NCBI GenBank assembly: GCA_963663385.2
Contig: CAXXXD010000003.1
Location: forward strand, 320,001-384,000
Origin: Oceanispirochaeta sp.
GTDB lineage: Bacteria; Spirochaetota; Spirochaetia; DSM-2461
Length of the DNA: 64,000 nucleotides
Reading direction: 5' to 3'
Part shown: piece by piece, positions 402 through 7,333 of the stretch
Layout of the letters: the number at the start of each line of letters is the position of its first letter
Numbering within the stretch: position 1 is the stretch's first letter
Position numbers and translations under genes: made by a program
Notes under the pieces: model-generated
What the model saw: only the letters and a program-made list of their open reading frames with translations
Database searches by the model: none
What the model was told of the DNA's origin: nothing

Positions 402-2471
402 TTACCCCCAAAAGGATTTTAACATAGGTGCGATTACCAGCGACACCATGGACATAAGTTTAATCAGAATATTCAGGGACGGCCCCGCCGTATCCTTGAA
501 GGGATCTCCCACTGTATCACCGACGACAGCGGCCTTATGGGAATCGGACCCCTTACCGCCCAGTTCTCCTCCCTCGATGGATTTTTTGGCATTGTCCCAG
601 GCACCGCCGGAGTTGGACATGAAGATGGCCAGTACGACTCCGGATGAAGTGACTCCGGCCAACAGGCCTATCAGCATTCCCGGACCGCCCAGAAAGCCGA
701 CAAGAAGGGGCGTTGTAACCGCGATGATTCCCGGCAGCAGCATCTCCCTGAGTGCCGCTGCGGTGCTGATATCGATACACCGGTTGTAATCGGGTTCTTC
801 CGTTTCAGACAGAATCCCCGGTTTTTCCCTGAACTGGCGACGTACTTCCTCTATCATTTTAAAGGCGGCCCTGCCCACAGCTCCCATGGAAAGAGCCGAA
901 AAGAGATAGGGAATGACCGCACCGACAAACAGTCCTGTCAGAACCGGAACGCTGGTCAGGTCAATAACCGCGGCTCCCGAGGATTCCTTAAAGGATGTAA
1001 AGAGGATCAGCGCTGTCAGAGCCGCCGAACCTATGGCAAACCCCTTGCCAATAGCTGCCGTTGTATTTCCAACGGCATCCAGACTGTCCGTGATATCCCT
1101 GACTTGATGGGGCATTTCAGACATCTCGGCCAATCCCCCCGCGTTATCTGCAATCGGTCCGTAAGCATCAACGGCAAGCTGAATCCCGAGGGTTACCAGC
1201 ATGCCCATGGCGGCCATGGCGACACCGTACATTCCTCCCAGGGTGAAGCTTCCCAGAATGGCTGCGGCAATAAGGATCAGAATCGGAAAGGATGACATCA
1301 TACCGACGCCTATCCCGGTAATAATAGCAGTGGCGGCCCCTGTCTCGCAGCTCTTAACAATGGAATTCACCGGACGGGTTCCTGTCCCTGTATAGTATTC
1401 GGTTATCAGGCCGATCAAAGTACCGGCAGCAAGCCCCATACAGCTGGCCAGAAATACGGCCAGCCAGCCGGTACCGTTACCATACTGTTCATCTCCCAGG
1501 AAAAATCTGAACAGGATAAAGGCAAAGAGGGCAGCCAGCCCGGCCGCACCGAATGTTCCCGTATTCAGGGCCTTCTGGGGATCCTTTCCCGGTCCTGTTC
1601 TCACAAAAAACACGCCGATTATGGATGCCAGGATACCGACAGAGGCCAGCAGAAGCGGCAAAAGCAGAAGTTTCATTTTTACCGGAGTTGAAGCATCGGT
1701 TGTCAGGCCAAGGATCATGGCCCCGACCAGGGAACCCACATACGATTCAAAAAGGTCAGCCCCCATCCCGGCCACATCGCCTACATTATCTCCCACATTG
1801 TCGGCGATAGTGGCCGGATTACGGGGGTCGTCCTCGGGAATTCCGGCTTCGACCTTACCCACCAGGTCGGCTCCCACATCGGCCGCCTTGGTAAAGATTC
1901 CTCCGCCTACGCGGGAGAAAAGGGCAATGGATGAAGCCCCCAGGGAGAATCCTGTAATAATGGGCAATACCGTCTCTATCAGGATTTCTTCGGTGCTTCC
2001 CAGGAAATTTGTAAATATCCATAGTAAAAGAGACAGACCGGACAGGCCGAGGCCTACAACGCACATTCCCATTACGGTTCCTCCGGAAAAGGCTATCCTT
2101 AAGGCGCCGTTCATACCGCAATCCAGGGCGGACTGGGTTGTCCGTGAGTTGGATGCCGTCGCAATTTTCATCCCGATGTATCCCGACAGAGCGGACAATA
2201 CCGCGCCTACAATAAAAGACAGGGACTGAAATCTGAGAAATCCTTTATTAGCCAATGCCAGAAAAAGGGATACTATTGCAATGAAAGGAAGAAGAATCCT
2301 GTACTCCCTGTAGAGGAACGTCATGGCTCCTTCCGATACATATCCACCAATCTTCCGTAAAACCGGATTGTTAACAGGTTGTCTGTATATCCGGAAACTT
2401 GTAATTAAAGCAAAAATCAATGCACCCGTTCCAGCGGCAAAGCCTATGGGTATGAATTGATTCATATTCAT
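402..2471 (-). CDS. hppA: Membrane-bound K+-dependent, probably Na+-translocating pyrophosphatase
   Basis: Motifs [44 protein letters not shown] and [17 protein letters not shown] (Ala = K+-dependent); DLFES gate Glu as in Na+-PPases. Start moved to ATG 2471 behind AGGAG. Confidence 0.95.
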
Positions 2472-2483
2472 TTTTGATCTCCT

Positions 2484-2493
2484 ATAAAAAGTC
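2484..2493. repeat. IS110 subterminal inverted repeat (end downstream of the transposase)
   Basis: ATAAAAAGTC, exact reverse complement of 3845-3854; extends imperfectly to ~21 bp. Confidence 0.85.
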
Positions 2494-2531
2494 AATCATA
2501 AGCCTATTAACAAGCTTACAATTGAACCGGA

Positions 2532-3644
2532 TTACCCAGTTTTTACGGCATTGAATGCAGCCGCCTGCATCTTCAAGTACTTATCATCCGGAACCATCTT
2601 CAACGGATCAAAGGGTTCACGGGTTTTCAATATGGAGTACACTACCGTACTCATCTTTCTTGCAGAGGCGATAATACTCGTGCCGCTGCCCTTGTTCTTC
2701 TTCATCGCTCTGTACTTCGTCATGATACGGTAATTGCCAGTCGTTTTCCGAGTTCTAACCATTCCCATAACACACTGAACAAATGCCGTTCTCAGTTCTA
2801 CAGCCCCTCTCTTTGTTATATGCCCATGATGAATCGTCTCATTGGAGTTCTGCACCCATGGTACAAGACCGGCATAAGCCGAATACTTCTTGGCACTGGC
2901 GTACCGCTTGATATCATCCGTATAGGCCCTAATAGTCGATGCCGTTATCAATCCGACTCCCGGGATCGTCTGCAATAACTGTACATCCTCATCTTCCTTT
3001 ACAAGTTCCAGCAGGACTTTCTCTAACTGCTTGACCTGGTTCGAAACCTGATCTATCGTAGAAAGCAGCGGTTCTATCGCTTTGGCAGCGCTTCCGAAAC
3101 TCCTATGGTCCACGAGACCGATGAGGATGCGCTGCCTTTCTTTTTTACTCTGCAGCGCAGCTCTTTTTGTTTCAATTCCATACCCTAGAAGCAGTCCGTG
3201 AACCTGATTCTTCAAAGATACGACTGATTTAACAAGGATAGTTCTGGATTTAAGAACTCTACGGATATCCTCACTCTCCTGAGAACAAAGCTGTGATTCG
3301 GGAAGCATATCTTTTTCCAAGAACTCTGCTAGAGTTCTGGCATCATGCTTATCCGTCTTTTTCACTGATTCATTTACAACTTTGAATTTCAGTGTATTCA
3401 CAACCACCACCTCAATCCCTGCTAGCAATAGCTTGTTACGGAAGAACCGGGCATTTCCTGTTGATTCCACTGCAGCCCTAACATCAAGGCCCTCTTCTGT
3501 ATAGGACACTGCTTTCTCAAGAAATGCTCTGTAACCGTCCTCAGAGGTCGGATACATTCCTGATTCACAAATGCTTCTATCATCACTCAGGAAACAGACT
3601 GTTAACTGGGATTTGTGCAGATCCACTCCGATACTCATCTTCAT
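2532..3644 (-). CDS. IS110 family transposase/recombinase (DEDD RuvC-like + Tnp20 domain)
   Basis: IGVDLHK, AVESTG, KTDKHDA (D-E-D-D); LLQTIPGVGLITA, YAGLVPWVQNS, ITKRG. Start at ATG 3644 behind AGGAG. Confidence 0.95.
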   Translation of the reverse strand: MKMSIGVDLHKSQLTVCFLSDDRSICESGMYPTSEDGYRAFLEKAVSYTEEGLDVRAAVESTGNARFFRNKLLLAGIEVVVVNTLKFKVVNESVKKTDKHDARTLAEFLEKDMLPESQLCSQESEDIRRVLKSRTILVKSVVSLKNQVHGLLLGYGIETKRAALQSKKERQRILIGLVDHRSFGSAAKAIEPLLSTIDQVSNQVKQLEKVLLELVKEDEDVQLLQTIPGVGLITASTIRAYTDDIKRYASAKKYSAYAGLVPWVQNSNETIHHGHITKRGAVELRTAFVQCVMGMVRTRKTTGNYRIMTKYRAMKKNKGSGTSIIASARKMSTVVYSILKTREPFDPLKMVPDDKYLKMQAAAFNAVKTG

Positions 3645-3659
3645 ACCTTCGCTCCTATT

Positions 3660-3841
3660 GCCTAAAACAGCGCCTGTACGGTGAATTGATTCCATTCTCC
3701 TATCCGGTCTCGAAGACCATTGAATGTTTCGGTCACGGCTCTTCATTCTCCTGTACGGTCTCGGAGACCAGTAAAAATGGCGAACAGTAACCTGGCTGTT
3801 CTAAACGATGTTTAGAACATTGTATCAATCCACAAGCCTAT
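3660..3841 (-). ncRNA. Candidate IS110 bridge/seek guide RNA in the long upstream non-coding end
   Basis: Lies downstream of the predicted circle-junction promoter. 10-bp hairpin 3797-3819, then two homologous ~28-nt units (3744-3771, 3693-3720), each with a GGTCT-N3-AGACC hairpin and the AGGAG junction motif. Ends approximate. Confidence 0.65.
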
Positions 3842-3844
3842 GAA

Positions 3845-3854
3845 GACTTTTTAT
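3845..3854. repeat. IS110 subterminal inverted repeat (end upstream of the transposase)
   Basis: GACTTTTTAT, reverse complement of 2484-2493. Confidence 0.85.
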
Positions 3855-3913
3855 CATTCCTCCTTTACTATTCAAAAACGCAACTGAACTGGTGATTAGT
3901 CATATTCAGCGGA

Positions 3914-6900
3914 TTACCCCTTCAGGACTTTCAGCATCTCCTCCAGGGAAATCTTCCTCTCTTCAAAGGCGATAAACGCCTCATCTGTCACAGAGTGTCC
4001 CGCCTGGGGGCCGGGGATTAACCGGAACCGGTCATCCAGGTTCCCTTCTGTAATCGCTGCAGCTATCTGCCCGATTGCTTCGGATGCACCCTTCCTGACA
4101 CACTCCTCGCAGAGACAGACATGAATATGTTTCTTGCCTCCCGTCTTCAGGGTCGTGGGTTCGGCAACCTTCCTCATATTATTATAGGTTGTATGAAGCA
4201 GTTCTTTGGCTGTTTTGGAACGGATCTCACCCAGAAGGCGCCGGTACAGCCCCTGCACATCCGGGTTGTCCTGACTCTGCCGGATCTGCGCATCCGTATC
4301 CTGCTCATGGAGGAAGGTGGACCTTTTGGCCCAGTCGTCCTTGGTCCGGACACTGGGGGTTCCCGCTCCGGAGATACAGCCGCCGGGGCAGGCCATAATC
4401 TCTATCATGTCCAGTCCGGTATCTTCGCCGTTCTTGATCCTCTCCACAATGGGAACCGCATTGCTGATACCGCTGATAATCCCGATACGGACCGTGGCGT
4501 CTCCCAGTCTGGCCTGGCTGATCTTGACGCCCTCCATACCATGGGCTTCGGTATACTCCAGGGGTTTGTATTTATAGGCGGGGTCCAGTTTGGATGCCGC
4601 CATCCTGAGAGCCGCTTCGGACACCCCTCCGGATACACCGAAGATAATCCCCGCTCCCGTGCTCTGCCGGAAGGGGTTGTCAAACTCGGACGGTTTGACC
4701 TGATCTTTGGTAATTCTCAGGCAGTCTGCCATTTCAAATAGTTCGATGGAAGTCAGAACGGAATCCACATCCTGCAGACCGCCTGTGTACATCTCCGGGC
4801 GGTCTGCCTCTTTTTTCTTGGCCAGGCAGGGCACAATGGAAACCACATGGAGTTTTTCCCGGTCGATATCCCTGTAGAACTCGGGGAGATAGCGTTTGAC
4901 CACGGCTCCCATCATCTGCTGGGGAGATTTACAGGAAGAAAGGTGAGGAATCACTTCCGGATAGGATTTTTCCACAAAGTTCACCCATCCTGGGCAGCAG
5001 GAGGTCAGGTGAGGAAGGGGGGTTCCCTTACCCAGTCTTTCCAGAAATTCCGTGGTCTCTTCCACAATGGTCAGGTCCGCTGCAAAGGCGAAGTCATATA
5101 CATAGTCAAAGCCGATCTTTTTCAGAAGCCCGGCGATAAAACCGGAGGTTTCCGCCGAAGTCAGCCCGTAGCGTTCGGCGACCAGCGCTCTTACGGCGGG
5201 GGCAATAAAACCGACGGTCCTGCAGTCCTCTCCGCAGTTGATGGAACTGAAGACCCTGTCTGTCGCCCGGACAAAGTCCAGAGCGCCGCAGGGGCAGACA
5301 TTGACACAGTGACCGCAGGCAATACAGTTGGTTTCGGTCAGGGGCCTGCCTGTTTTGGTGGTAACCTTGAAGTTCCCGTCCAGTGAGGTCATGGCCAGAA
5401 CATCCACACCCATTACATTGGAGCAGGCGTTTACACAGGCACCGCAGCCGATACACTTGTTGTGGTTCCGGCGGATAAAAGGGTGATCCTTCTCAATGGG
5501 AAGGTAGTTGGCCACCTTGTTGACCTTTCTATATTCAATTCCGTATTCCGTGGCTGCTGCCCGGAGGGAGCAGTGCTTTTCCTGACTGCAGCCGCAGCTG
5601 AGACAGCGTTTTGACTCTTCCATGGCCTGTTCGGCTGCGATGGTGTATTCCACCTCGTCAAAAGTCTCCTTTCTTGCCTTCATCTCCGCATGACTCAGCT
5701 TAACCCGGGGAATTTCAGGTTTATCCGCAAACTCGTATTTGGGCAGGTCTTCAAAGGACTCCATGTAGCAGGTGTACTCTTTTCCCGGCAGCTGAGCATA
5801 GCCGTGAGTCAGAAAATGATCCATGGAATCTGCCGCCATCTTCCCGGCGTTGATCGCCTGAATAACCGTAGCGGGACCGGTGGTACAGTCCCCTCCCGAG
5901 AAGATCCCTCTGGCCGAGGTTTCCATGGTTTTCGGGTTAACATCAATGTCCCCCCACTTGTTCAGCTTAACCGGAAGGTCGTCCCACAGGTAGTCGGTGT
6001 TGGTCTTCTGTCCTACAGCGGAGATAATCATATCACAGGCAAGGACCGATTCCGAACCTTCCACGGGAACGGGACGGCGGCGTCCGGATTTGTCCGGCTC
6101 ACCCAGTTCCATCCTCTGAATGCCCAGACCGGCGATGTCGTTAGTTTCGTTCAGAACAATCCTGTTGGGAGCCGAAAGGAAAAGCATCTGGATTCCCTCT
6201 TCCAGGGCTTCTTCCACTTCATAAGGTTCGGCAGGCATCTGTTCCCGTGTCCTTCTATAGACCAGAGTTACCCTGGACGCGCCGTTTCTGAGGGCAGTAC
6301 GGGCACAGTCAATGGCGGTGTTTCCTCCTCCGACGACAGCCACATGACCCTCGTTGCGCTTCTCACGGCCTCTGGTAACCAGTTCCAGGTAGTGGATGCC
6401 CGGCCGTACACCGGCCACCTTTTCGCCGTCCACCCGCATGGAACTGGGTTCCCAGGATCCTACGGCCATATAAACCGCGTCAAAATCCTTCTGCAGGTCT
6501 TCCAGTCTCAGGTGCTGTCCCAGCGCTTTTCCGGTAACGATGGTCACTCCGGCTTTCTCAATACGGGCAATTTCCCTGTCCATAACATCTTCGGGCAGGC
6601 GGTAGGAGGGGATTCCGTACCGCATCATGCCTCCCGCTTTCTCCTGCCTCTCGAAGAGGGTGACATTGTGTCCCTTCAGGGCGGAATAGTAGGCTGCGGA
6701 CAGCCCCGAGGGGCCTCCGCCCACAATGGCAAGGCGTTTTCCGGTTTTTTCCACTTCAGGGAATACCGGTTGTTCCTGCTCAACCAGATCGGCCACAAAG
6801 CGTTTGACCGGGTTGATGGCTACGGGGGTGTCCACCAGGTTGCGACGGCAGGCAGCCTCGCAGGGGTGGGGGCAGACCCGGCCACAGATGGCGGGGAGAG

Positions 6901-7333
6901 GGTTGCTGTCCAGGATAATATCGTAGGCGGCTTTGAAGTTGCCCACAGCTACCTGTTTCAGGTACCCCTGAATATCCACACCGGCAGGGCAGGTTCTGTG
7001 GCAGGGGGCGGTGCAGTCCGCCTGATGGTCCTCCAGAAGTTCCTTGAGGCGGTACTTTCTGAAGTTTTCCAGATTTTCGCTTTTTGTGAATATGGTCATG
7101 CCATCGTCACAGAGGGTTATGCCGGGATGGACGAGGGAGCCGTCTCCCAGTTCGACCATACTCAGGCCGCTGTTGTCTTTCCAGTCCCGGAATTTGGGAT
7201 CGAATCCCAGAAGGGGAAGGGGAATGTCCTGATCCAGGATAACCTGGAGGATTGTCTGGTTCTGATGGATTTGGTAGTCTTTTTGGTCTACCGTAATGGA
7301 AATAGTACTGCTCCCGGTGGCGGGGGTGGACAT
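3914..7333 (-). CDS. [FeFe]-hydrogenase fused to an N-terminal GltD-like NAD(P)H/FAD oxidoreductase domain (glutamate-synthase-beta-linked type)
   Basis: GltD: APCHRTCP, CGRVCPHPCEAAC, GGGPSG, GGGNTAIDCAR. 2x[4Fe-4S]: CIGCGACVNAC, CIACGHCVNVCP. H-cluster: TSCCPGW, VPCLAKKKE, EIMACPGGCISGAG. Small-subunit motif LLHTTY. RBS AAGGAG. Confidence 0.93.
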   Translation of the reverse strand: MSTPATGSSTISITVDQKDYQIHQNQTILQVILDQDIPLPLLGFDPKFRDWKDNSGLSMVELGDGSLVHPGITLCDDGMTIFTKSENLENFRKYRLKELLEDHQADCTAPCHRTCPAGVDIQGYLKQVAVGNFKAAYDIILDSNPLPAICGRVCPHPCEAACRRNLVDTPVAINPVKRFVADLVEQEQPVFPEVEKTGKRLAIVGGGPSGLSAAYYSALKGHNVTLFERQEKAGGMMRYGIPSYRLPEDVMDREIARIEKAGVTIVTGKALGQHLRLEDLQKDFDAVYMAVGSWEPSSMRVDGEKVAGVRPGIHYLELVTRGREKRNEGHVAVVGGGNTAIDCARTALRNGASRVTLVYRRTREQMPAEPYEVEEALEEGIQMLFLSAPNRIVLNETNDIAGLGIQRMELGEPDKSGRRRPVPVEGSESVLACDMIISAVGQKTNTDYLWDDLPVKLNKWGDIDVNPKTMETSARGIFSGGDCTTGPATVIQAINAGKMAADSMDHFLTHGYAQLPGKEYTCYMESFEDLPKYEFADKPEIPRVKLSHAEMKARKETFDEVEYTIAAEQAMEESKRCLSCGCSQEKHCSLRAAATEYGIEYRKVNKVANYLPIEKDHPFIRRNHNKCIGCGACVNACSNVMGVDVLAMTSLDGNFKVTTKTGRPLTETNCIACGHCVNVCPCGALDFVRATDRVFSSINCGEDCRTVGFIAPAVRALVAERYGLTSAETSGFIAGLLKKIGFDYVYDFAFAADLTIVEETTEFLERLGKGTPLPHLTSCCPGWVNFVEKSYPEVIPHLSSCKSPQQMMGAVVKRYLPEFYRDIDREKLHVVSIVPCLAKKKEADRPEMYTGGLQDVDSVLTSIELFEMADCLRITKDQVKPSEFDNPFRQSTGAGIIFGVSGGVSEAALRMAASKLDPAYKYKPLEYTEAHGMEGVKISQARLGDATVRIGIISGISNAVPIVERIKNGEDTGLDMIEIMACPGGCISGAGTPSVRTKDDWAKRSTFLHEQDTDAQIRQSQDNPDVQGLYRRLLGEIRSKTAKELLHTTYNNMRKVAEPTTLKTGGKKHIHVCLCEECVRKGASEAIGQIAAAITEGNLDDRFRLIPGPQAGHSVTDEAFIAFEERKISLEEMLKVLKG

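Follow-up and report, generated by a model that had tools for sequence, protein, structure and literature searches.

A candidate bridge RNA in the left end of an Oceanispirochaeta IS110-family element, with guides that match translation start regions and the element's own ends

The window, by which we mean the whole 64,000-nucleotide (nt) stretch of Oceanispirochaeta sp. DNA analysed here (contig CAXXXD010000003.1, positions 320,001 to 384,000 of the forward strand), contains an IS110-family insertion sequence (IS) at positions 3859-2479 on the minus strand. One AGGAG is assigned to the element, and its ends were set where identity between its copies stops. The genome holds 10 copies that are 100% identical to each other, and the element looks active. 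Its left end is 215 nt long and its right end about 53 nt. The left end lies upstream of a recombinase gene and, with a probability that we put at roughly 0.9, encodes a bispecific bridge/seek RNA. The first ~180 nt of the left end, about 3846-3681 on the minus strand, form the putative guide-RNA region. Its parts and the recombinase gene lie in the window as follows:

3824..3833, minus strand: outer closing stem, 5' strand GUGGAUUGAU, pairing with 3690-3681 (also present in the minimum-free-energy fold of the window)
3797..3819, minus strand: 5' stem-loop of 10 base pairs (bp) with a 3-nt loop, AUC (inverted-repeat search)
3782..3792, minus strand: basal stem under the target loop, 5' strand, pairing with 3741-3731
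3744..3779, minus strand: unit B, CATTTTTACT-GGTCTCCGAGACC-GTACAGGAGAATG, putative target-binding loop
3779-3773, minus strand: CAUUUUU of unit B, putative top-strand (right target) guide, its CAU opposite the host ATG
3772-3770, minus strand: linker ACU of unit B
3769-3757, minus strand: hairpin of unit B
3754-3748, minus strand: ACAGGAG of unit B, putative bottom-strand (left target) guide
3747-3744, minus strand: tail AAUG of unit B
3693..3726, minus strand: unit A, CATTCAAT-GGTCTTCGAGACC-GGATAGGAGAATG, putative donor-binding loop
3726-3722, minus strand: CAUUC of unit A, putative guide for the left-end start GAATG
3721-3719, minus strand: linker AAU of unit A
3718-3706, minus strand: hairpin of unit A
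3703-3697, minus strand: AUAGGAG of unit A, identical to the right-end terminus
3696-3693, minus strand: tail AAUG of unit A
3681..3690, minus strand: outer closing stem, 3' strand (RNAalifold, pair count and minimum-free-energy fold of the window)
2532..3644, minus strand: IS110-family recombinase gene, 370 amino acids (aa), with its own AGGAG at 3656-3652

The recombinase carries the Pfam domains DEDD_Tnp_IS110 (PF01548, E 8.7e-21, residues 5-155) and Transposase_20 (PF02371, E 4.6e-19, residues 222-302). It matches the sequence of the IS621 transposase structure 8wt6 with E 9.2e-16, mainly in the Tnp domain (phmmer). In that alignment the glutamate of IEATG, the two aspartates of KTDTVDA and a serine of YESGS face identical residues, which, by counting along the alignment, are likely E60, D102, D105 and S241 of IS621. 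With an N-terminal DEDD (RuvC-like) domain and a C-terminal Tnp domain that holds a catalytic-type Ser, the protein is predicted to be an IS110-family recombinase.

To follow the region through its relatives, we used 76 loci from a scan of a genome collection (79-32% identity, mostly Spirochaetia and Desulfobacterales-type metagenome-assembled genomes) and the best 80 of 259 relatives from a metagenome scan. Thiospirochaeta perfilievii carries a 75%-identical copy on a plasmid. An alignment of 29 left ends, A1, served to define helices with RNAalifold and a pair count. A guide parser read 130 of 166 loci, which gave 125 unique insertions and 83 distinct module sets; the 36 loci that it missed were mostly outgroup elements of 32-39% identity, or truncated or decayed copies. 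Matches between guides and DNA were tested by permuting guides among elements (5000 permutations) and against controls in which the register was slid. Some irregularities were seen on the way. The decayed relatives L041, L043, L062, L065 and L071 keep a recombinase gene, but their guide-RNA region has been lost, interrupted or replaced. In L064, two copies of GUGAAGGAG result from a duplication of 12 nt within unit B; and in L039 the last ~29 nt of the right end are tandemly duplicated (about 2098-2160).

Units B and A were recovered by a repeat search as a 32-nt direct repeat, 84% identical, at a spacing of 51 nt. In the 64-kb window, the pattern that they share (hairpin, G, NNN, AGGAGAATG) is found at two places; none of 100 dinucleotide shuffles contains it. 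The positions that a preliminary description of this DNA had given for the 10-bp hairpin and for two modules 51 nt apart are all correct on the minus strand. On A1, four helices are supported by RNAalifold and pair count: the outer stem, the basal stem under unit B and the two capping hairpins. Across the 29 relatives, 96.8% of cells are paired, compared with 88.5% after shuffling and 20-42% in slid registers, and 13 of 28 pairs are altered on both sides. In the outer stem (columns 38-42/209-213), three of five pairs change on both sides, for example between GC (13) and AU (11). The basal stem (columns 89-99/152-162) is paired in 96.2% of cells with compensatory changes in three pairs; at columns 97/154 the pair is UG in 15 relatives, CG in 10 and UA in 4. 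Such frequent U-G pairs, which would be A-C on the other strand, indicate that the RNA strand is the recombinase-sense strand. A 5' hairpin of at least 6 bp is found at the same place in 28 of the 29 relatives, with unrelated sequences. The non-coding end beside the recombinase gene thus holds a structured RNA region that is backed by covariation. In the fold that we propose, the outer stem would enclose the 5' hairpin, the target loop (unit B, which has a basal stem to itself) and the donor loop (unit A), both being internal loops with a hairpin of the conserved GGUCUnCGAGACC type as their cap. A small hairpin with a U-run follows the outer stem at 3678-3662.

The preliminary description had cautioned that CAUU and GAAUG might pair as closing stems of the two modules. 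This stands for the outer C-G and A-U, which never vary; the rest is not simply a stem. A closing stem of 4-5 bp from CAUU and AAUG was rejected: only C-G and A-U are constant, and in the 3' tail the base third from the end can be A, G, U or C, although the U that it faces is constant. At position 4, CAUUC changes with the DNA and not with the 3' side of the module. The 10-mer ACCGTACAGG occurs twice, at 3750-3759 in the 3' side of unit B and at 3673-3682 just past the outer stem; the identity looks coincidental, because the second site stays CCGnAnAGG in relatives whatever the guide.

The element's two ends, and the host DNA on which they abut, are laid out as follows:

3860..3864, minus strand: left-junction AGGAG, host Shine-Dalgarno (SD), common to target and donor
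3855..3859, minus strand: first 5 nt at the left, GAATG ('right donor'); their top strand would pair with CAUUC of unit A
3845..3854, minus strand: left arm of the subterminal inverted repeat, ATAAAAAGTC, 10 bp, containing a weak -10-like TAAAAA (3853-3848)
2479..2525, minus strand: right end, with hairpin, -35-like TTGACT, right repeat arm and ATAGGAG terminus
2525-2492, minus strand: terminator-like hairpin of 15 pairs in the right end, with a T-run just before the restored SD
2495-2490, minus strand: TTGACT, -35-like, in the right end
2493-2484, minus strand: right arm of the subterminal inverted repeat, in the right end
2485-2479, minus strand: ATAGGAG ('left donor'), last 7 nt of the right end, which closes in TTTTTATAGGAG; also the SD for the host gene
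2469..2478, minus strand: right target of the window copy, a 7-nt spacer ATCAAAA, then the ATG of an H+-pyrophosphatase gene (2471-402)

Identity between the 10 copies starts after AGGAG with GAATGATAAAAAG and ends in GATTGACTTTTTATAGGAG. All of them read NNAGGAG and then GAATGATAAAAAG on the left, and on the right TTTTTATAGGAG followed by 5-8 nt and ATG. As AGGAG is common to target and donor, the crossover probably falls within these 5 nt or at their edge. The arms of the subterminal inverted repeat (2484-2493 and 3845-3854) are 10 bp long, 100% complementary and 5 nt from either end, and GATAAAAA, in the region of the left arm, is unchanged in the 29 aligned relatives. The terminus GGTTGACTTTTTATAGGAG and a start of the form G...GATAAAAAG are kept in relatives down to ~51% protein identity.

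Unit A matches these ends on both of its sides. Its ATAGGAG, described earlier as an exact match to the donor junction, does equal the last 7 nt of the right end in 10 of 10 copies. Its 5' side, CAUUC, is an exact complement of the first 5 nt of the left end in 110 of 122 rows, over 10 guide variants and with no permutation out of 5000 reaching this value. Seven pairs of guide and left-end start change together (left ends GAATG, GTATG, GAACG, GCACG, GCATG, GTACG and GGATG/GAGTG), and some of the exceptions are G-T or U-G wobbles. In A1, the corresponding columns 1-5/167-171 are paired in 97.9% of cells, with two pairs that change on both sides. The 3' side behaves differently from this: ATAGGAGA is invariant both in the RNA of the 29 relatives and in the right-end DNA, which is consistent with pairing and uninformative on covariation. 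Thus, the second loop covaries with the donor through the left-end start and CAUUC.

The 3' side of unit B differs from that of unit A by one base, the one that separates target from donor. Its GTACAGGAGA had been reported to match the reconstructed empty site at 9 of 10 positions, and we obtained the same value with the left flank ending in GTAAAGGAG joined to the first base of the right flank, A; this empty target is a reconstruction from ten copies only. When we searched 30 related genomes with the right-flank gene to find an empty site, similarity reached at most 80% over short pieces and no unoccupied site was found. Of the left flanks of the 10 copies, eight read ACAGGAG, one AAAGGAG (the window copy) and one GCAGGAG, which makes the window copy the outlier and the ACAGGAG of unit B the consensus left target. 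Family-wide, the left flank is identical to the 3' side of unit B in 83 of 104 cases at position -7 and in 97 of 104 at -6, with 25 guide variants and 0 of 5000 permutations; agreement is 0.87 in register and at most 0.58 when slid. An earlier subset had given 115 matches of 159 between left flank and guide, against 55.6 +/- 11.4. Position -8 was a candidate for a further contact, as T stands there in 6 of the 10 own copies, and was rejected: family-wide the count is 37 of 104, not significant, and there is no covariation. Position -9 shows no covariation with the guide family-wide either. Variants of the 3' side number 26 in the target loop and 4 in the donor loop.

On the right, an ATG follows AGGAG at 3-11 nt in 97 of 101 flanks. 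Spacers of 6, 5, 7 and 8 nt between them occur in 57, 17, 11 and 8 of these 101 flanks, respectively. When the CAU of the unit B 5' side is set on this ATG, the bases next to it are complementary to the flank at -1 in 50 of 101 cases, at -2 in 56 and at -3 in 57 (15, 1 and 2 of 5000 permutations, respectively), and at -4 in 50 (527 of 5000). Taken jointly, positions -1 to -4 give z 5.8 and 0 of 5000, in the correct register only. A register anchored on the AGGAG core was also tried for this side: its best offset gave z 2.9, none of the other offsets was significant and no position pair reached z 4. The ATG-anchored register fits better. The target loop therefore covaries with both sides of the crossover, strongly on the left and significantly but weakly on the right.

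These results bear out an earlier reading of the region as an IS110 guide RNA made up, from its 5' end on, of a stem-loop, the target loop (unit B) and then the donor loop (unit A), a reading that structure, flank covariation and end covariation all support. The comparison proposed at that stage was whether unit B covaries with insertion-site flanks and unit A with the element's own ends, and both are seen. The guides had been placed on the 3' sides of the modules. They are there, and the restriction to these sides does not hold, as the 5' sides (CAUUC in unit A, CAU and the following NNNN in unit B) appear to guide too.

The sites that the element occupies are gene starts. All 10 copies sit between an SD, AGGAG, and an ATG at a distance of 6-8 nt, co-oriented with the gene, and open reading frames (ORFs) of 98 to more than 507 aa begin at those ATGs. 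Behind the window copy, the gene matches Pfam H_PPase with E 5.4e-269 over an ORF that runs 507 aa to the end of the extracted locus. We compared the occupied sites with 1427 free NNAGGAG-N5-8-ATG sites in the element's own genome. AC at -7/-6 is found at 9.8% of the free sites and at 8 of 10 occupied ones (p 3e-7), and at least three A among the four bases before ATG at 10.8% and 7 of 10 (p 1.5e-5); only 10 free sites meet all conditions. An ATG lies 5-9 nt past ACAGGAG at 11.6% of 1462 genomic sites, compared with 10 of 10 occupied ones. Since few ACAGGAG sites precede an ATG and all occupied ones do, pairing of the left-target type alone does not explain the choice of gene starts. The comparison supports a translation start region as the natural target, which would consist of an SD, ~6 nt and an ATG and be entered co-oriented.

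A mechanism can be proposed from these pairings. The 3' sides carry top-strand sequence (NN-AGGAG of the target in unit B, AUAGGAG in unit A) and would pair with the bottom strand, whereas on the 5' sides CAUUC of unit A would pair with the left-end GAATG, and CAU with the following NNNN in unit B with NNNN-ATG of the host gene. The bridge RNA would be made, processed and bound by the DEDD recombinase, and would tell it which two DNAs to join: the target would be held by unit B and the ends that meet in the excised circle by unit A, with strand exchange in the shared AGGAG, presumably as in IS621. The left junction would then become the host SD followed by GAATG, and the right junction TATAGGAG followed by the original spacer and ATG, so that the right end would return an identical SD to the gene at its original spacing.

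As for transcription, the element lies in a 5' untranslated region and is co-oriented with the gene, so transcription from the host side should run on into the guide RNA and the recombinase gene. Circle formation would bring TTGACT (2495-2490) and TAAAAA (3853-3848) to a distance of 17 nt, as a junction promoter with a weak -10. Junction promoters have been shown for IS621 and ISEc21 (PMC11208158, PMC11187229). A conserved TGnTAnAnT (3827-3819), picked out by eye upstream of the 5' hairpin, could be an internal promoter; it falls inside the outer-stem region, which leaves two readings of the 5' end of the RNA.

Several other readings of the region were weighed against a bridge RNA. One would have a target-only seekRNA, in which unit B guides while unit A and the subterminal repeats are recombinase sites and the donor ends are recognised by protein. 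Such an arrangement would account for the strongly conserved 10-bp subterminal inverted repeat that flanks the donor junction, and it would sit well with the lack of any variation, and hence of covariation, in the donor 3' guide and the right end; moreover, the short seekRNAs described by Siddiquee et al. match the target only (PMC11187229). We nevertheless consider it unlikely, because the 5' side of unit A changes with the left-end start, exactly in 110 of 122 rows (0 of 5000), which is the signature of base-pairing and not of a protein site. We give very little credence to the modules acting as DNA, either as direct-repeat recombinase sites or as cruciform hairpins, with no RNA product. IS ends commonly hold protein-binding repeats, and the hairpins are near-palindromic and thus alike on both strands. 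However, the helices pass through U-G intermediates that are A-C on the other strand (for example columns 97/154), the long-range outer and basal stems covary, and the variable positions track the host DNA that flanks each element, as a fixed protein site would not.

The region could also be taken for a cis-acting leader of the recombinase mRNA, an attenuator or a ribosome-sequestering SD-mimic, whose likeness to the flanks is a by-product of insertion at an SD. It lies in the 5' untranslated region of the recombinase gene and has three AGGAG motifs, the outer stem is followed by the small hairpin and U-run at 3678-3662, and a third module-like sequence stands within the coding region. Yet a leader has no need to copy the left flank of its own element at -7/-6 or to complement its own left-end start, and the architecture matches that of experimentally proven guide RNAs; such a leader is, in our judgement, extremely improbable.

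A number of observations weigh against a bridge RNA all the same. The permutations ignore the relatedness of elements and host base composition, which the slid registers cover partly, and the parser demanded AGGAGA-type motifs, which partly imposes the invariance counted for unit A and for the right end. The right-target guide pairs weakly (0.54 of the four variable positions, versus 0.31-0.48 in slid registers), and the distance from AGGAG to the paired stretch varies with spacers of 5-8 nt, which is hard to fit to a rigid IS621-like synapse. In IS621 the guides overlap on the CT core, whereas here the pairings abut at the donor or sit ~2-3 nt apart at the target: CAUUC ends at +1 and the AAU that follows cannot pair with GAG, and the last bases of the unit B 5' side vary (ACU 36, AAU 30, UUU 17 and others) though AGGAG is constant. 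In a sister element, 79% identical, 10 of 15 left flanks (L011-L024 and L029, about locus positions 700-787) read TATAGGAG and the guide reads UUUAGGAG. A promoter scan of the window flagged none on the minus strand, and the junction -10, TAAAAA, is without the usual final T. A scan of 2300-4100 with Rfam 15, at E up to 10, gave chance-level matches only, although it is not established whether Rfam models bridge RNAs. A hint of transcription comes from contigs of four metatranscriptome runs of four studies, which cover the left end, the sources being 85-95%-like relatives; these contigs speak for relatives only, give no ends, strand or level, and may be DNA carry-over. The 15 RNA-library rows to which these runs belong contained only 0.04 of the query words, and a search of recorded runs turned up no RNA run of this organism.

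In the genome of the sister element, the flanks of L016, L022, L015 and L029 belong to a repeated host sequence that has its own hairpin and an ending, ACTTTTTATAGGAG, like the right end of the IS. This host repeat may act as a decoy or as a favoured landing site, or may be a relic. Tandem IS copies were rejected as the source of the right-end-like left flanks of this element, the upstream DNA being the host repeat with its own hairpin and no IS.

We then compared the proposed bridge RNA with characterized systems. In IS621 (PMC11208160, PMC11208158), the bottom-strand guide (left target guide, LTG, or left donor guide, LDG) is on each loop's 5' side and the top-strand guide on the 3' side, and all four guides include the CT core. 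The present element resembles IS621 in having a left-end RNA upstream of a DEDD/Ser recombinase, with a 5' stem-loop, a target loop and a donor loop in this order; in its hairpin-capped, pseudo-symmetric internal loops, of which the target loop is variable and the donor loop conserved; and in one guide that would act on the bottom strand at the left and one on the top strand at the right, guide 3' ends pointing toward the crossover. It differs from IS621 in the order of the guides within each loop, which is swapped here, in the length of the subterminal repeat (2-3 bp there, 10 bp here), in the low similarity of its recombinase (E 9e-16, mainly in the Tnp domain) and in a target made of an SD and a start codon. 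IS621 targets sites of the REP (repetitive extragenic palindromic) type.

The order of guides is that of the IS1111 family. For the seekRNAs of ISEc11, ISPa11 and ISKpn4, Siddiquee et al. place the top-strand complement 5' of the bottom-strand match (PMC11187229), and Durrant et al. assign long subterminal repeats (7-17 bp) to IS1111 and 2-3-bp repeats to IS110 (PMC11208160). The 10-bp repeat found here is within the former range. Unlike in those elements, the non-coding region here lies upstream of the recombinase gene and not downstream of the transposase, and where the donor-binding nucleotides of many IS1111 RNAs are predicted in a multi-loop, the donor loop here is a simple internal loop, a twin of the target loop. 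Judged from its sequence, then, the element fits neither published type, IS621 or IS1111, in full. ISEc21 (PMC11187229) shares an upstream non-coding region that gives an RNA matching both target strands; it differs in having the top-strand match 3' of the bottom-strand match, where it is 5' here, and a target within IS3-family transposase genes.

A taste for gene starts has a parallel within the family. IS900, an IS110-family element studied by Doran et al., reportedly inserts at translation initiation signals, as the element described here does. The IS900 transposase is antisense to the target gene, letting the opposite-strand hed ORF be expressed, whereas the recombinase here is co-oriented with the gene in 10 of 10 copies. 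The literature consulted offered no guide-RNA analysis for IS900.

The closest parallels in architecture come from two distant relatives. ISLin1 of Leptospira interrogans (named by plasmid annotation; 30% protein identity), the nearest catalogued relative that we came across, has a left end of ~250 nt and a short right end, as here. Its two hairpin modules have 3' sides that equal the left flank CCGTAGA and the right-end terminus ATAGGAG, with the same swapped order and the same donor heptamer. Its target is not an SD and its two hairpins are unlike each other, as inspected in one copy and its boundaries. In the supplementary matrix of Siddiquee et al., ISLin1 is placed in the IS110-type part, beside archaeal IS (PMC11187229). 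A Lentisphaeria element of 33% identity is present in 11 copies at SD-ATG sites, with a left end of 284 nt and a right end of 42 nt, and its module 3' sides carry copies of the left flank and of the right end. A literature search found no SD- or start-codon-directed bridge RNA and no left-end RNA with swapped order, and large published surveys may already include this family. According to a 2026 preprint, many of 86 bridge RNA models deviate from IS621 (bioRxiv 10.64898/2026.10.21.760802).

It is possible, though we lean against it, that the element, ISLin1 and the Lentisphaeria relative (30-33% identity) make up a third architectural class of IS110-family guide RNAs, defined by a left-end RNA with IS1111-type order. 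Its further traits would be long subterminal repeats and non-overlapping guides, here with a two-part target (SD and start codon) across a variable spacer. Such a class, if true, would imply a synapse geometry unlike that of IS621 and would provide an extant intermediate for the shift of the RNA from one end of the element to the other that has been proposed.

The preliminary description had seen in the near-duplicate loops a sign of tandem duplication of one module. The module hairpins are dissimilar in both outgroups of the same architecture (the 33% Lentisphaeria element and the 30% ISLin1), so the near-identity of the modules here is family-specific; among the family's 83 module sets, only 28 have hairpins that agree with each other in the first four bases of their stems. 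The likeness may be better explained by shared constraints, namely the same AGGAG, the resemblance of the donor to a start region (AGGAG-GA-ATG) and a protein-binding hairpin common to both. A recent tandem duplication is less likely than these constraints, and an ancient duplication behind the pseudo-symmetry noted for IS621 is possible.

Other features of the locus complete the description. A third module-like sequence lies within the recombinase gene at 3105-3127 on the minus strand, where GGTCTCGTGGACC and then ATAGGAG form codons for GLVDHRS. At 68-79% identity its DNA is kept as GGTCTCGnGGACCA, third codon positions included, and in more distant relatives it is not; it could be a recombinase-binding hairpin on the recombinase's own mRNA, or chance. 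A 404-aa ORF that starts inside unit B was rejected as a chance in-frame extension of the recombinase gene, given that relatives begin MKMSIGVD and that an AGGAG precedes 3644. Subterminal direct repeats are found at 2497-2510 and 3831-3844 (TTAATAGGCTTATG and TTCATAGGCTTGTG in the sense of the IS), each followed by (G)ATTGA. The 15-pair hairpin of the right end, with its T-run, might halt read-through into the host gene. A mini-ORF of 10 codons (ATG ATA AAA AGT ... TGA) at 3856-3824 starts in GAATG, behind the host SD of the left junction, and is probably incidental because the ATG is missing in relatives with the left ends GCACG or GAACG. The upstream neighbour of the element (3914-7333, minus strand) encodes a 1139-aa fusion of Fe-only hydrogenase, pyridine-nucleotide oxidoreductase and 4Fe-4S domains (Pfam).

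No natural guides other than bridge/seek RNAs are known to specify both recombination partners, and these RNAs are being engineered as genome-writing tools. Each single feature described here has precedent, and the gain is accordingly moderate. The RNA-bearing end and the order of guides, which have been described as separating the IS110 and IS1111 groups, stand here in another combination, which makes the proposed evolutionary link between the groups testable. The layout of a loop would thus not be dictated by where in the element it is encoded. The weak pairing on the right, anchored on the start codon at a distance that varies, and guides that do not overlap may point to a right half-site that is read with more tolerance. 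For the host, the SD restored by the right end may explain how ten copies can stand before intact genes. Altogether, a guide that would be aimed at a near-universal signal, an SD and a start codon, suggests a natural system for landing in front of genes.

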